This document shows positions 8,820 through 51,950 of a stretch of 64,000 nucleotides of DNA, in pieces (the stretch's first letter is position 1; each line of letters begins with the position of its first letter). The stretch is from Escherichia coli. Its GTDB lineage: Bacteria > Pseudomonadota > Gammaproteobacteria > Enterobacterales > Enterobacteriaceae. Below the pieces are notes generated by a model. The model was not told the origin of the DNA. It saw only the letters and a program-made list of their open reading frames with translations, and made no database searches. Position numbers and translations under genes: made by a program. Location: the NCBI RefSeq assembly GCF_024502345.1, contig NZ_JALDNN010000001.1. The stretch is one strand, 5' to 3'.

Positions 8820-9120
8820 ATTATTGCCGGATGCGGCATAAACGCCTTATCCGGCCTACACATGCGTCCCCGTAGGTCGGATAAGACGCGCCAGCGTCGC
8901 ATCCGACATTTTGGGCACAGTAGCTGTATGTGACATGAACGCATTATGTGACCAACACATGCGCTCCCCGTAGGTCGGATAAGACGCGTCAGCGTCGCAT
9001 CCGACATTTTGGGCACAGTAGCTGTATGTGACATGAACGCATTATGTGACCAACACATGCGCTCCCCCGTAGGTCGGATAAGACGCGCCAGCGTCGCATC
9101 CGACATTTTAGGCACAGTAG
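8820..9120. repeat. REP-containing tandem repeat array (about 98-bp unit, about 3 copies)
   Basis: The unit GTAGGTCGGATAAGACGCG...CGCATCCGACATTTTGGGCACAGTAGCTGTATGTGACATGAACGCATTATGTGACCAACACATGCGCTCCCC recurs starting at 8872, 8970 and 9069. Confidence 0.8.
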
Positions 9121-19824: not shown

Positions 19825-20318
19825 ATGACTGACAGTGAACTGATGCAGTTAAGCGAACAGGTTGGGCAGGCGCTGAAAGCCCGTGGCGCAACCGTAACAA
19901 CTGCTGAGTCTTGTACCGGCGGTTGGGTAGCGAAAGTGATTACCGATATTGCCGGTAGCTCCGCCTGGTTTGAACGCGGATTTGTCACCTACAGTAACGA
20001 AGCCAAAGCGCAGATGATCGGCGTACGCGAAGAGACGCTGGCGCAGCATGGCGCGGTGAGCGAACCCGTCGTGGTGGAAATGGCGATAGGCGCCCTGAAA
20101 GCGGCTCGTGCTGATTACGCCGTGTCTATTAGTGGTATCGCCGGGCCGGATGGCGGCAGTGAAGAGAAGCCTGTCGGCACCGTCTGGTTTGCTTTTGCCA
20201 CTGCCCGCGGTGAAGGCATTACCCGGCGGGAATGCTTCAGCGGCGACCGTGATGCGGTGCGCCGTCAGGCTACTGCGTATGCATTGCAGACCTTGTGGCA
20301 ACAATTTCTACAAAACAC

Positions 20319-20322
<4 letters not shown>
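19825..20322 (+). CDS. pncC: NMN amidohydrolase PncC (CinA-like)
   Basis: ORF 19822-20322 recognised as YgaD/PncC immediately upstream of recA. Confidence 0.8.
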
Positions 20323-21463
<1,141 letters not shown>

Positions 21464-21490
21464 TCGTTCGTTATTGATGATAATAGATAA

Positions 21491-21623
21491 TGTGTGCACG
21501 GACGGTCCCCTCGCCCCTTTGGGGAGAGGGTTAGGGTGAGGGGAACAGGCCAGCACTGGCGTGAAAAATTACTCTCACCTCGATCCTCTAACGAATTGGG
21601 CCTGCGGGAACATTCTGCACACT
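21491..21623. repeat. GC-rich miniature palindromic repeat within the recA-recX spacer
   Basis: Terminal inverted motifs TGTGTGCAC (21491-21499) and CTGCACAC (21616-21623); internal imperfect palindrome CCCCTCGCCCCTTTGGGGAGAGGG and G-runs GGGTTAGGGTGAGGGG. Confidence 0.5.
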
Positions 21624-21657
21624 CATTGACTATTAAATCTGTTTATCAGCAAAACCT

Positions 21658-21687
21658 GGGTCGCATCTGCGGCCCTTTTGCTTTTTT
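21658..21687 (+). terminator. recA rho-independent terminator (attenuates readthrough into recX)
   Basis: Hairpin GGGTCGCATCTGCGGCCC followed by TTTTGCTTTTTT. Confidence 0.8.
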
Positions 21688-21705
21688 AAGTTGTAAGGAT
21701 ATGCC

Positions 21706-22206
21706 ATGACAGAATCAACGTCCCGTCGCCCGGCATATGCTCGCCTGTTGGATCGTGCGGTACGCATTCTGGCGGTGCGCGATCACAGTGAGCAAGAACT
21801 GCGACGTAAACTCGCGGCACCGATTATGGGCAAAAATGGCCCAGAAGAGATTGATGCTACGGCAGAAGATTACGAGCGCGTTATTGCCTGGTGCCATGAA
21901 CATGGCTATCTCGATGACAGCCGATTTGTGGCGCGCTTTATCGCCAGCCGTAGCAGCAAAGGTTATGGACCTGCGCGTATTCGCCAGGAACTGAATCAGA
22001 AAGGTATTTCCCGCGAAGCGACAGAAAAAGCGATGCGTGAATGTGACATCGACTGGTGCGCACTGGCGCGCGATCAGGCGACGCGAAAATATGGTGAACC
22101 TTTGCCAACTGTCTTTTCAGAAAAAGTTAAGATCCAGCGTTTTCTGCTCTATCGTGGCTATCTGATGGAAGATATCCAGGATATTTGGCGAAATTTTGCC
22201 GACTGA
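21706..22206 (+). CDS. recX: RecA regulator RecX
   Basis: 166-aa ORF downstream of recA recognised as RecX (OraA). Confidence 0.9.
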
Positions 22207-22333
22207 ACGCATACGGTATTTTACTTCCCAGTCAAGAAAACTTATCTTATTCCCACTTTTCAGTTACCAGCCCGGCGGTTAAGACACGCTGGAGCTGGTG
22301 GCGATATTTCGTTAGCTTGATTTCAGGATAATT

Positions 22334-24964
22334 ATGAGCAAGAGCACCGCTGAGATCCGTCAGGCGTTTCTCGACTTTTTCCATAGTAAGGGACATCAGG
22401 TAGTTGCCAGCAGCTCCCTGGTACCCCATAACGACCCAACTTTGTTGTTTACCAACGCCGGGATGAACCAGTTCAAGGATGTGTTCCTTGGGCTCGACAA
22501 GCGTAATTATTCCCGCGCTACCACTTCCCAACGCTGCGTGCGTGCGGGTGGTAAACACAACGACCTGGAAAACGTCGGTTACACCGCGCGTCACCATACC
22601 TTCTTCGAAATGCTGGGCAACTTCAGCTTCGGCGACTATTTCAAACACGATGCCATTCAGTTTGCATGGGAACTGCTGACCAGCGAAAAATGGTTTGCCC
22701 TGCCGAAAGAGCGTCTGTGGGTTACCGTCTATGAAAGCGACGACGAAGCCTACGAAATCTGGGAAAAAGAAGTAGGGATCCCGCGCGAACGTATTATTCG
22801 CATCGGCGATAACAAAGGTGCGCCATACGCATCTGACAACTTCTGGCAGATGGGTGACACTGGTCCGTGCGGCCCGTGCACCGAAATCTTCTACGATCAC
22901 GGCGACCACATTTGGGGTGGCCCTCCGGGAAGTCCGGAAGAAGACGGCGACCGCTACATTGAGATCTGGAACATCGTCTTCATGCAGTTCAACCGCCAGG
23001 CCGATGGCACGATGGAACCGCTGCCGAAGCCGTCTGTAGATACCGGTATGGGTCTGGAGCGTATTGCTGCGGTGCTGCAACACGTTAACTCTAACTATGA
23101 CATCGACCTGTTCCGCACGTTGATCCAGGCGGTAGCGAAAGTCACTGGCGCAACCGATCTGAGCAATAAATCGCTGCGCGTAATCGCTGACCACATTCGT
23201 TCTTGTGCGTTCCTGATCGCGGATGGCGTAATGCCGTCCAATGAAAACCGTGGTTATGTACTGCGTCGTATCATTCGTCGCGCAGTGCGTCACGGTAATA
23301 TGCTCGGCGCGAAAGAAACCTTCTTCTACAAACTGGTTGGTCCGCTGATCGACGTTATGGGCTCTGCGGGTGAAGACCTGAAACGCCAGCAGGCGCAGGT
23401 TGAGCAGGTGCTGAAGACTGAAGAAGAGCAGTTTGCTCGTACTCTGGAGCGCGGTCTGGCGTTGCTGGATGAAGAGCTGGCAAAACTTTCTGGTGATACG
23501 CTGGATGGTGAAACTGCTTTCCGTCTGTACGACACCTATGGCTTCCCGGTTGACCTGACGGCTGATGTTTGTCGTGAGCGCAACATCAAAGTTGACGAAG
23601 CTGGTTTTGAAGCAGCAATGGAAGAGCAGCGTCGTCGGGCGCGCGAAGCCAGCGGCTTTGGTGCCGATTACAACGCAATGATCCGTGTTGACAGTGCATC
23701 TGAATTTAAAGGCTATGACCATCTGGAACTGAACGGCAAAGTGACCGCGCTGTTTGTTGATGGTAAAGCGGTTGATGCCATCAATGCAGGCCAGGAAGCT
23801 GTGGTCGTGCTGGATCAAACGCCATTCTATGCGGAATCCGGCGGTCAGGTTGGTGATAAAGGCGAACTGAAAGGCGCTAACTTCTCCTTCGTGGTGGAAG
23901 ATACGCAGAAATACGGCCAGGCGATTGGTCACATCGGTAAACTTGCTGCGGGTTCTCTGAAAGTGGGCGACGCTGTGCAGGCTGATGTTGATGAGGCTCG
24001 TCGCGCCCGTATTCGTCTGAATCACTCCGCAACGCACCTGATGCACGCTGCGCTGCGCCAGGTTCTGGGTACTCATGTATCGCAGAAAGGTTCACTGGTT
24101 AACGACAAGGTGCTGCGCTTCGACTTCTCACACAACGAAGCGATGAAACCAGAAGAGATTCGTGCGGTCGAAGACCTGGTGAACGCACAGATTCGTCGCA
24201 ATTTGCCGATCGAAACCAACATCATGGATCTCGAAGCGGCGAAAGCGAAAGGTGCGATGGCGCTGTTCGGCGAGAAGTATGATGAGCGCGTACGCGTGCT
24301 GAGCATGGGCGATTTCTCCACCGAGCTGTGTGGCGGTACTCACGCCAGCCGCACTGGTGATATTGGTCTGTTCCGCATCATCTCTGAATCGGGTACTGCT
24401 GCAGGCGTTCGTCGTATCGAAGCGGTAACCGGAGAAGGTGCTATCGCCACCGTTCATGCAGACAGCGATCGCTTAAGCGAAGTCGCACATCTGCTGAAAG
24501 GCGATAGCAATAATCTGGCTGATAAAGTGCGCTCAGTACTGGAACGTACGCGTCAGTTAGAAAAAGAACTACAACAGCTTAAAGAACAAGCTGCCGCACA
24601 GGAGAGCGCAAATCTTTCCAGTAAGGCAATTGATGTTAATGGTGTTAAGCTGTTGGTTAGCGAGCTTAGCGGTGTTGAGCCGAAAATGTTGCGTACCATG
24701 GTTGACGATTTAAAAAATCAGCTGGGGTCGACAATTATCGTGCTGGCAACGGTAGCCGAAGGTAAGGTTTCTCTGATTGCAGGCGTATCTAAGGACGTCA
24801 CAGATCGTGTGAAAGCAGGGGAACTGATTGGTATGGTCGCTCAGCAGGTGGGCGGCAAGGGTGGTGGACGTCCTGACATGGCGCAAGCCGGTGGTACGGA
24901 TGCTGCGGCCTTACCTGCAGCGTTAGCCAGTGTGAAAGGCTGGGTCAGCGCGAAATTGCAATAA
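22334..24964 (+). CDS. alaS: Alanine--tRNA ligase AlaS
   Basis: 876-aa ORF starting [24 protein letters not shown], the class II AlaRS N-terminus; the 609-aa antisense ORF is rejected. Confidence 0.97.
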
Positions 24965-36129: not shown

Positions 36130-36225
36130 TGTGGTTTGTAGGCATGATAAGACGCGCCAGCGTCGCATCAGGCATTGTGTACAGAGCGGCGGATGCGGCG
36201 AAAACGCCTTATCCGCCCGAATAAA
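36130..36225. repeat. REP palindromic element
   Basis: TGTAGGCATGATAAGACGCGCCAGCGTCGCATCAGGCA...GGCGGATGCGGCGAAAACGCCTTATCCGCC between ygaY and proX. Confidence 0.7.
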
Positions 36226-51451: not shown

Positions 51452-51539
51452 CCTGAATCCTCTCGAAAGTGTGTCACTTGGGAGAGCGCCCCGACATTTC
51501 CCGCGTCGGGTCACGCGTTTAATTGTTATTGATTCTTTT

Positions 51540-51950
51540 TGCCGGAGAGCGGCTCCGCCTTATCCGGCCGACATAGATTTATTCCTGTTCACGTACAGAT
51601 TGTCGGATGCGGCGTAAACGCCTTATCCGACCTGGATCCCCGTAGGCCGGACAAGACGCGCAGCGTCGCCTCCGGCATGGGTGCGCCGATTGTCGGATGC
51701 GGCGCAAACGCCTTATCCGACCTACATTTCCGTAGGCCGGACAAGACGCGTAAGCGTCGCCTCCGGCATGGTGCGCCGAATGTCGGATGCGGCGTTAACG
51801 CCTTATCCAACCTACACTCTCGTAGGCCGGACAAGACGCGCAGCGTCGCCTCCGGCATGGTGCGCCGATTGTCGGATGCGGCGTTAACGCCTTATCCGAC
51901 CTACACTCTCGTAGGCCGGACAAGACGCGCAGCGTCGCCTCCGGCATGGG
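51540..51950. repeat. REP/BIME tandem cluster (about 5 units) between gabT and gabP
   Basis: Repeated TGTCGGATGCGGCG(T/C)AAACGCCTTATCCGACCTAC...CGTAGGCCGGACAAGACGCGCAGCGTCGCCTCCGGCATGG units. Confidence 0.8.

Follow-up and report, generated by a model that had tools for sequence, protein, structure and literature searches.

A composite BoxC repeat lengthens the recA-recX spacer in part of Escherichia coli

BoxC, a repeat family of E. coli, was reportedly first noted beside envM/fabI by Bergler et al. in 1992 and is said to have been surveyed by Bachellier et al. in 1996-1999. One published list gives the family a unit length of 56 bp and 32 copies (PMC2267715). Holder et al. 2015 equate TMECO, the 'E. 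coli triplex motif', with the earlier BoxC and with the PIT element of Maher's group (PMC4666352). The PIT (Hoyne, Maher et al. 2000) and TMECO (PMC4666352) papers describe only the 34-37-nt motif, for which no conserved flanks were reported, and a palindromic arrangement of type-A and inverted type-B motifs has been described at five K-12 sites (Holder et al., PMC4666352). The consensus TMECO oligonucleotide forms an intrastrand purine-motif triplex in vitro, which was not detected in duplex DNA or in vivo (Holder et al., PMC4666352). BIME-1/RIP elements, each a REP pair with an IHF site, are small palindromic intergenic repeats at the 3' ends of transcription units, and REPs differ from BoxC in having a mobilising enzyme, RAYT/TnpA-REP (PMC3333891). 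ERIC/IRU elements are enterobacterial and MITE-like, and form a long hairpin when transcribed. REP325, a repeat in a 3'UTR, acts as both a terminator and a stabiliser between co-transcribed genes (bioRxiv 10.64898/2026.03.23.713779). Here we compare these systems with a repeat located between recA and recX.

In the window (the whole 64-kb stretch of DNA that was analysed), the recA stop codon and the recX start codon are 242 bp apart by ORFs and coordinates, as the original prediction claimed. The spacer of a K-12-type genome is 68 bp, as the original prediction also stated. In the pairwise alignment to K-12, recA, the terminator and recX match, and 190 bp of the window stand in place of 16 bp, the 16-mer CTTGTTTGATACACAA, giving a net difference of +174 bp. 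The extra DNA is flanked by the recA stop codon on one side and by the conserved recA terminator on the other. The recA annotation is carried by the matching RefSeq genomes, and the BoxC element falls within the recA 3' untranslated region. The terminator scan and the K-12 alignment also agree with the order proposed earlier, in which the native terminator sits at the recX-proximal end with the element upstream of it. This terminator is identical in K-12, and an equivalent hairpin followed by a T-tract is found at 79 Enterobacteriaceae loci. Upstream of recA, positions 20323-20342 read TACTGTATGAGCATACAGTA, the canonical recA SOS (LexA) box, so the recA promoter region looks K-12-like. A 71-codon ORF with a GTG start (21494-21709) crosses the repeat and the terminator and is missing from the short allele; it is presumably spurious. 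The features of the region are listed in Table 1.

Table 1. Features of the recA-recX region, with positions in the window.
Feature	Position	Strand	Basis and remarks
recA CDS	20402-21463	+	ORF and translation; start ATGGCTATCGACGAAAAC at 20402; stop TAA 21461-21463
Composite BoxC palindromic repeat, 186 bp	21470-21655	.	Insertion lengthening the spacer; missing from K-12-type genomes; paralog alignment; fold
Left terminal motif TTGATGATAA	21474-21483	+	Diverged version of the family end (C)TGATGACAAAG; consensus from A2 and 19-copy alignments
BoxC/PIT/TMECO type-A core	21508-21543	+	CCCTCGCCC-CTTTG-GGGAGAGGG-TTA-GGGTGAGGG-G
Palindrome apex GCCAGCACTGGC	21549-21560	.	Kept in full-length paralogs
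Decayed second BoxC, inverted type-B relic CTCTCACCTCGATCCTCTAACGAATTGGGCCTGCGGG	21572-21608	-	Aligns with the intact inverted CCCTCACCCCGACCCTCTCCCTGAAAGGGCGAGGGGG of the paralogs
Right terminal motif GTTTATCAGCAAAACCT	21641-21657	+	Family consensus GTTTGTCAGCAATCTC; A2 and family alignments
Native recA intrinsic terminator GGGTCGCATCTGCGGCCC, then T-tract TTTTGCTTTTTT	21658-21687	+	7-bp stem, 4-nt loop; terminator scan
recX CDS	21706-22206	+	ORF; ATG at 21706; recX annotation in matching genomes

By its sequence, the insertion is a single BoxC repeat of E. coli, alias PIT, TMECO or 'E. coli triplex motif'. A regular-expression search with the TMECO pattern (CCCTCNCCC N3-6 GGGNGAGGG N3 GGGNGAGGG) matched 21508-21542 on the + strand. 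The 36-mer core is identical to MG1655 TMECO nos. 7, 11 and 15 (three of the 23 MG1655 copies), which are of type 'A mm'; it is thus an exact match of type A (TTA loop) with one mismatched triplet. The K-12 fabI-ycjD copy of BoxC also aligns with it. This 36-nt core occurs once in the window and had no match in 100 shuffles of the window. At least 6 paralogs align with the element over about 175 bp, outer ends included, among them those at yggL-yggN, yijF-gldA, gcvP-ygfF, sstT-alx and fepB-entC. We looked for a core mismatch to BoxC/TMECO and for a lack of paralogs; the core matches and paralogs exist.

The element is already known, both as a member of a named family and as an exact catalogued copy. 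TMECO no. 238 of E. coli 55989 (3,033,667-3,033,632; Holder et al. Supplementary Table S8) is the same locus, lying between recX (end 3,033,469) and recA (start 3,033,712), and the 242-bp recA-recX spacer of 55989 is identical to that of the window. The names recA and recX were not found in the supplement of that paper, whose authors did not name the flanking genes (PMC4666352).

The prediction of an inserted, dispersed repeat missing from the K-12 site was borne out by the alignment, the paralogs and the genome-wide copies. In the genome-wide search, E. coli genomes had a median of 15 family matches each, and the highest number in one genome was 26. The recA-recX copy and all 17 paralogs examined are intergenic, and no second copy of the element was found in the 64-kb window. 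Plasmid-borne matches were only 28 of 70158. One plasmid, NZ_CP074792.1 (E. coli 94_0962, 154.7 kb), carries a BoxC core at 1627-1664 as a 38-nt match with 100% identity.

Like BoxC, the window copy is intergenic, multi-copy and G+C-rich, with the same core and imperfect dyad symmetry. However, it is not a bare 50-56-bp unit but a composite of about 186 bp that has outer inverted ends and contains a second BoxC in decayed form. It also departs from the PIT/TMECO description in its surroundings, since the motif is embedded in a conserved unit of about 175-186 bp that the paralogs have in common. The left half of the family unit consists, in order, of the outer end (C)TGATGACAAAG, a conserved leader AAAAAGTGCTCGGACAGTCCCC and a type-A BoxC. 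The right half consists of the apex AACAGGCCAGCACTGGCGCGAATATTTA, an inverted type-B BoxC and the outer end GTTTGTCAGCAATCTC.

The predicted RNA fold of 21470-21660 is one long imperfect hairpin of 64 pairs with an energy of -74.4 kcal/mol, in which the outermost pair is 21470-21655 and the innermost 21552-21557. Its z-score against shuffles is -5.6, and the strong secondary structure expected of the element is thus recovered, as a predicted fold. The module limits first given, 21491-21623, are too narrow for this 186-bp palindrome. The description as GC-rich holds for those limits, at 58% G+C, but not for the whole element, at 48%. Terminal inverted repeats are present: TTGATGATAA pairs with TTATCAGCAA (21643-21652), and the arms 21481-21510 and 21606-21635 are 70% complementary. 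As to the motifs named earlier, CCCCTCGCCCCTTTGGGGAGAGGG is present at 21507-21530 and the left motif TGTGTGCAC at 21491-21499, whereas the right-hand motif GTGCACAC is absent. The actual sequence at 21615-21622 is CTGCACAC, and the perfect inverted pair is therefore only GTGTGCA/TGCACAC.

The layout is that of the type-A plus inverted type-B palindrome, but the type-B partner has decayed and lies outside the pattern, with no TMECO match on the minus strand of 21572-21608. The hairpin of the recA-recX copy (-74 kcal/mol) is correspondingly weaker than those of intact paralogs (-84 to -90 kcal/mol). The final 10 nt of the right terminal motif are common to the right end of a REP-pair insertion at the same site in E. 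albertii.

The element is an ordinary strain polymorphism. The long allele is present in 1634 of 5426 complete E. coli genomes (30%) at 99-100% identity, a proportion that mirrors what has been sequenced and not natural frequencies. All the other E. coli genomes sampled at the spacer carry the short allele, and the REP-pair allele of E. albertii type was found in none of the 5426. Long-allele strains include 55989 and B7A. Strain names (55989, B7A and bovine STEC) and the TMECO counts per strain suggest that they belong mainly to phylogroup B1. This polymorphism accounts for length variation beside recA, which is both a widely used marker and an SOS gene. The K-12 spacer should therefore not be taken as 'the' E. 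coli spacer, and the long allele tags a large subset of the species.

We then surveyed the recA-recX regions of 79 Enterobacteriaceae species representatives. The spacer is 66-73 bp in 50 of the 79, each with an equivalent terminator hairpin, and on this sequence comparison the outgroups show that the short spacer is the ancestral state. E. whittamii and one other Escherichia representative carry the K-12 spacer sequence almost exactly. The 242-bp allele of the window recurs in Escherichia sp. E1V33, where the right arm is decayed in the same form. The spacer of Escherichia sp. MOD1-EC7003 (NZ_PTRE01000025.1, L009:179-1200) is 1022 bp; its left junction is that of the window and is followed by a truncated BoxC relic. 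After the relic come five tandem units of about 174 bp, each comprising a recA-terminator-like hairpin and a REP-IHF-like-REP (RIP) segment, with a T-tract on the last hairpin only. In this array, a terminator stem together with a RIP has been amplified in tandem between two SOS genes.

The age of the BoxC insertion is such that E. coli and two cryptic Escherichia lineages have it in common, by descent or exchange. When the window is compared with E1V33, differences are found at 5 of 190 positions in the element, at 21 of 167 third positions in recX and at 17 of 300 third positions in recA. As judged from these sequences, the low divergence of the element could reflect constraint or a more recent exchange.

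Other lineages have filled the same gap differently. In E. albertii NBRC 107761 (L011:963-1200), the spacer is 238 bp, and both a K-12-like 16-mer and a degenerate terminator-stem copy are retained in it. After the degenerate hairpin comes a RIP-like REP pair that ends in ...CTTTGTCAGCAAAACCT directly before the real terminator; the BoxC element of the window terminates on the right with the same sequence as this pair, CAGCAAAACCT. Silvania confinis (L023:1006-1200) carries an ERIC/IRU element between the recA stop codon and the terminator, and partial ERIC-like sequence is present in the gap at two further loci (L067 and L070). ERIC resembles the BoxC element in size, in hairpin formation and in its choice of this gap, but no match longer than 7 nt exists between the element and the S. 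confinis copy. REP-like palindromes occupy the gap in Citrobacter species and Salmonella arizonae, and another palindrome does so in a Kluyvera species. The variety of repeats across taxa thus shows that small palindromic repeats have landed again and again in the gap between stop codon and terminator. The wider point is a modest one about the turnover of intergenic repeats, with BoxC, REP/RIP and ERIC collected by one gap in different lineages.

We consider it quite probable that the insertion is a BoxC copy, acquired ancestrally, that persists as a selfish or neutral passenger in the recA 3'UTR and has at most a small effect on the recA/recX ratio. The data show what the element is and what its history has been. 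It arrived in the gap, downstream of the stop codon and ahead of the terminator, in an ancestor that some E. coli have in common with two or more cryptic Escherichia lineages, and the long and short alleles now segregate as a pair. It appears to have no coding capacity and to add no promoter. We infer that it is transcribed within the recA 3'UTR and that its RNA folds into a self-contained long hairpin, which should disturb neither the terminator hairpin nor the ribosome-binding region of recX. In this reading, the site tolerates palindromic repeats and acquires them time and again, and any effect on the recA/recX ratio would be small. The neutrality of the copy is likewise inferred, and signs of constraint are lacking: the right BoxC has decayed, the MOD1-EC7003 copy is truncated, and ERIC, REP and other palindromes occupy the same gap elsewhere. 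All three observations speak against a conserved function, whereas the low divergence of the element from that of E1V33 is a hint in the other direction.

A regulatory role was the functional part of the original prediction. The hairpin would alter recA mRNA stability or readthrough into recX and so shift the RecX/RecA ratio during SOS. We regard this as unlikely. The element is indeed part of the recA-recX co-transcript and precedes the terminator, readthrough of which accounts for about 10% of recX transcription (PMC3542578); the predicted hairpin of the element is strong (-74 kcal/mol), and its sequence differs relatively little between E. coli and Escherichia sp. E1V33. REP325, a repeat hairpin similarly placed between co-transcribed genes, offers a model for tuning the ratio of upstream to downstream expression (bioRxiv 10.64898/2026.03.23.713779), and REP hairpins at similar places in a 3'UTR can attenuate readthrough and stabilise upstream mRNA. 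However, the function was shown for REP325 only, and PIT/BoxC motifs had no promoter or terminator activity in earlier experiments (per Holder et al. 2015, PMC4666352).

The features of the spacer also point away from regulation. The hairpin of the element ends in ...CAGCAAAACCT with no U-tract behind it, and the terminator scan of the spacer found no second terminator, picking up only the native one. The transcript up to the T-tract was folded with a partition-function model, which describes equilibrium and not kinetic folding; whichever allele was used, long or short, every pair of the terminator stem had a probability near 1.0. A scan of 21300-22400 found no sigma-70-like promoter, and the element therefore adds no obvious recX promoter. 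Rfam covariance models gave no match in 20000-23000 on either strand at E <=1. Moreover, as noted above, the window copy has one decayed arm, and the copy of MOD1-EC7003 is truncated. With about 10% of recX transcription arising by readthrough and with the REP325 precedent, a modest effect on recX readthrough would be possible by analogy, and we do not favour it. The long and short alleles form a natural pair for asking whether a large palindrome in the 3'UTR alters recX readthrough.

The long allele might instead be ancestral in E. coli, with the 68-bp K-12 spacer as a deletion derivative. This is quite unlikely, since most Enterobacteriaceae have spacers of about 68 bp and the K-12 sequence recurs nearly exactly in E. 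whittamii and in another Escherichia representative. The long allele or its relic does occur in two non-coli Escherichia lineages, and the K-12 16-mer CTTGTTTGATACACAA loosely resembles the ends of the element, but E. albertii keeps this 16-mer upstream of its own, different insertion. BoxC palindromes are also known to collapse by internal deletion elsewhere. At sstT-alx in ST131 (L101), the palindrome has collapsed to a simple hairpin, CCCCTCGCCCCTTTTGGGGAGAGGG, and collapse of the same kind was described by Holder et al. (PMC4666352). At the same locus in E. coli HS (L100:21-838), about 420 bp of unrelated, G+C-rich and partly palindromic sequence replaces the BoxC palindrome.

An effect at the DNA level is very unlikely. 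It would require the G-rich strand, when single-stranded, to form an intrastrand triplex (H-DNA-like) that stalls replication or repair and makes the spacer a rearrangement hot spot. The stable triplex of the TMECO oligonucleotide in vitro speaks for this, as do the greater variation of TMECO loci than of control loci between strains (Holder et al., PMC4666352) and the spread of spacer lengths across Escherichia (68, 238, 242 and 1022 bp). Double-stranded TMECO, on the other hand, gave no triplex signal, and DMS footprinting gave no protection in vivo (Holder et al., PMC4666352). Insertion and loss of repeats explain the variability equally well, and BoxC-free spacers in other genera vary too. 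The long allele itself is stable, because it is 99-100% identical in 1634 genomes. A classical MITE, moved by cut-and-paste by a transposase that recognises terminal inverted repeats, is highly improbable: imperfect terminal inverted repeats, a size below 200 bp, multiple copies and presence/absence polymorphism would all fit, but there is no target-site duplication, the alternative state at yggL-yggN, yijF-gldA and recA-recX is a REP pair in the same slot and not an empty site, plasmid matches are only 28/70158, and the family has no association with transposons, phages or plasmids (Holder et al., PMC4666352).

Of the wording 'inserted repeat or MITE', the first half stands and the second, in its strict sense, does not. 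None of the plausible pairs of ends is bordered by direct repeats of >=4 bp. The junction is not that of a clean insertion either, as the 16 bp of the short allele were replaced and not duplicated. The lack of a duplication, the replaced junction and the alternative REP-pair alleles make 'MITE' a loose description. We know of no cognate transposase for BoxC.

The spread of the BoxC passenger may be linked to the mechanism that spreads BIMEs. Like BIME-1/RIP, the element is a small palindromic repeat between genes, uses the slot that a REP pair fills in E. albertii recA-recX and in K-12 yggL-yggN and yijF-gldA, and shares outermost ends of the GATGACAAA / TTTGTCA type. Unlike BIME-1/RIP, it has no REP (PU) core pattern in 21470-21655; the cores are unrelated, and the similarity is confined to the terminal 10 nt. 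At yggL-yggN (L002:380-600 vs L086:216-400), 65 of 5426 genomes carry a BoxC allele and K-12 carries a BIME (REP pair), and the two alleles have identical outer ends, GATGACAAA ... TTTGTTATCAATCT. At yijF-gldA (L003:390-600 vs L087:190-450), the BoxC allele is present in 641 of 5426 genomes and a RIP-like REP pair in K-12. Hybrid mosaics are also found in K-12. The fimH-gntP region (L099) contains, in order, GATGACAAAG, a type-A BoxC and a REP, and in pstB-pstA (L096) the BoxC leader is directly preceded by a REP.

Composite BoxC and REP pairs (BIME-1/RIP) might then be interchangeable cores within common outer ends (GATGACAAA ... TTTGTCA[T/G]CA), installed or swapped by one shared mechanism that prefers the gap just ahead of a terminator hairpin, such as the one between recA and recX. 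We offer this tentatively and think it doubtful; it is proposed because three loci show BoxC and a REP pair as alternative alleles or orthologous fillings, and because hybrids exist. If true, BoxC would be a member of the BIME mosaic system and not a separate 'triplex' repeat, and the 'genomic instability' at TMECO loci would be recast as repeat turnover. BoxC insertions at BIME sites were reportedly described already by Bachellier et al. in 1997, so only the part concerning shared ends and a shared mechanism would be new.

The window also holds REP/BIME clusters of its own, at 51520-51950, 1330-1560, 8826-9104 and 36161-36200. The largest, at 51.5-51.9 kb, comprises about five REP pairs. The cluster at 1330-1560 has the flank CTGAT(A/G)(G/C)CAAACGCCA(G/A)ATTGCC, which resembles the RIP flank GATGACAAACGCAAAATT.
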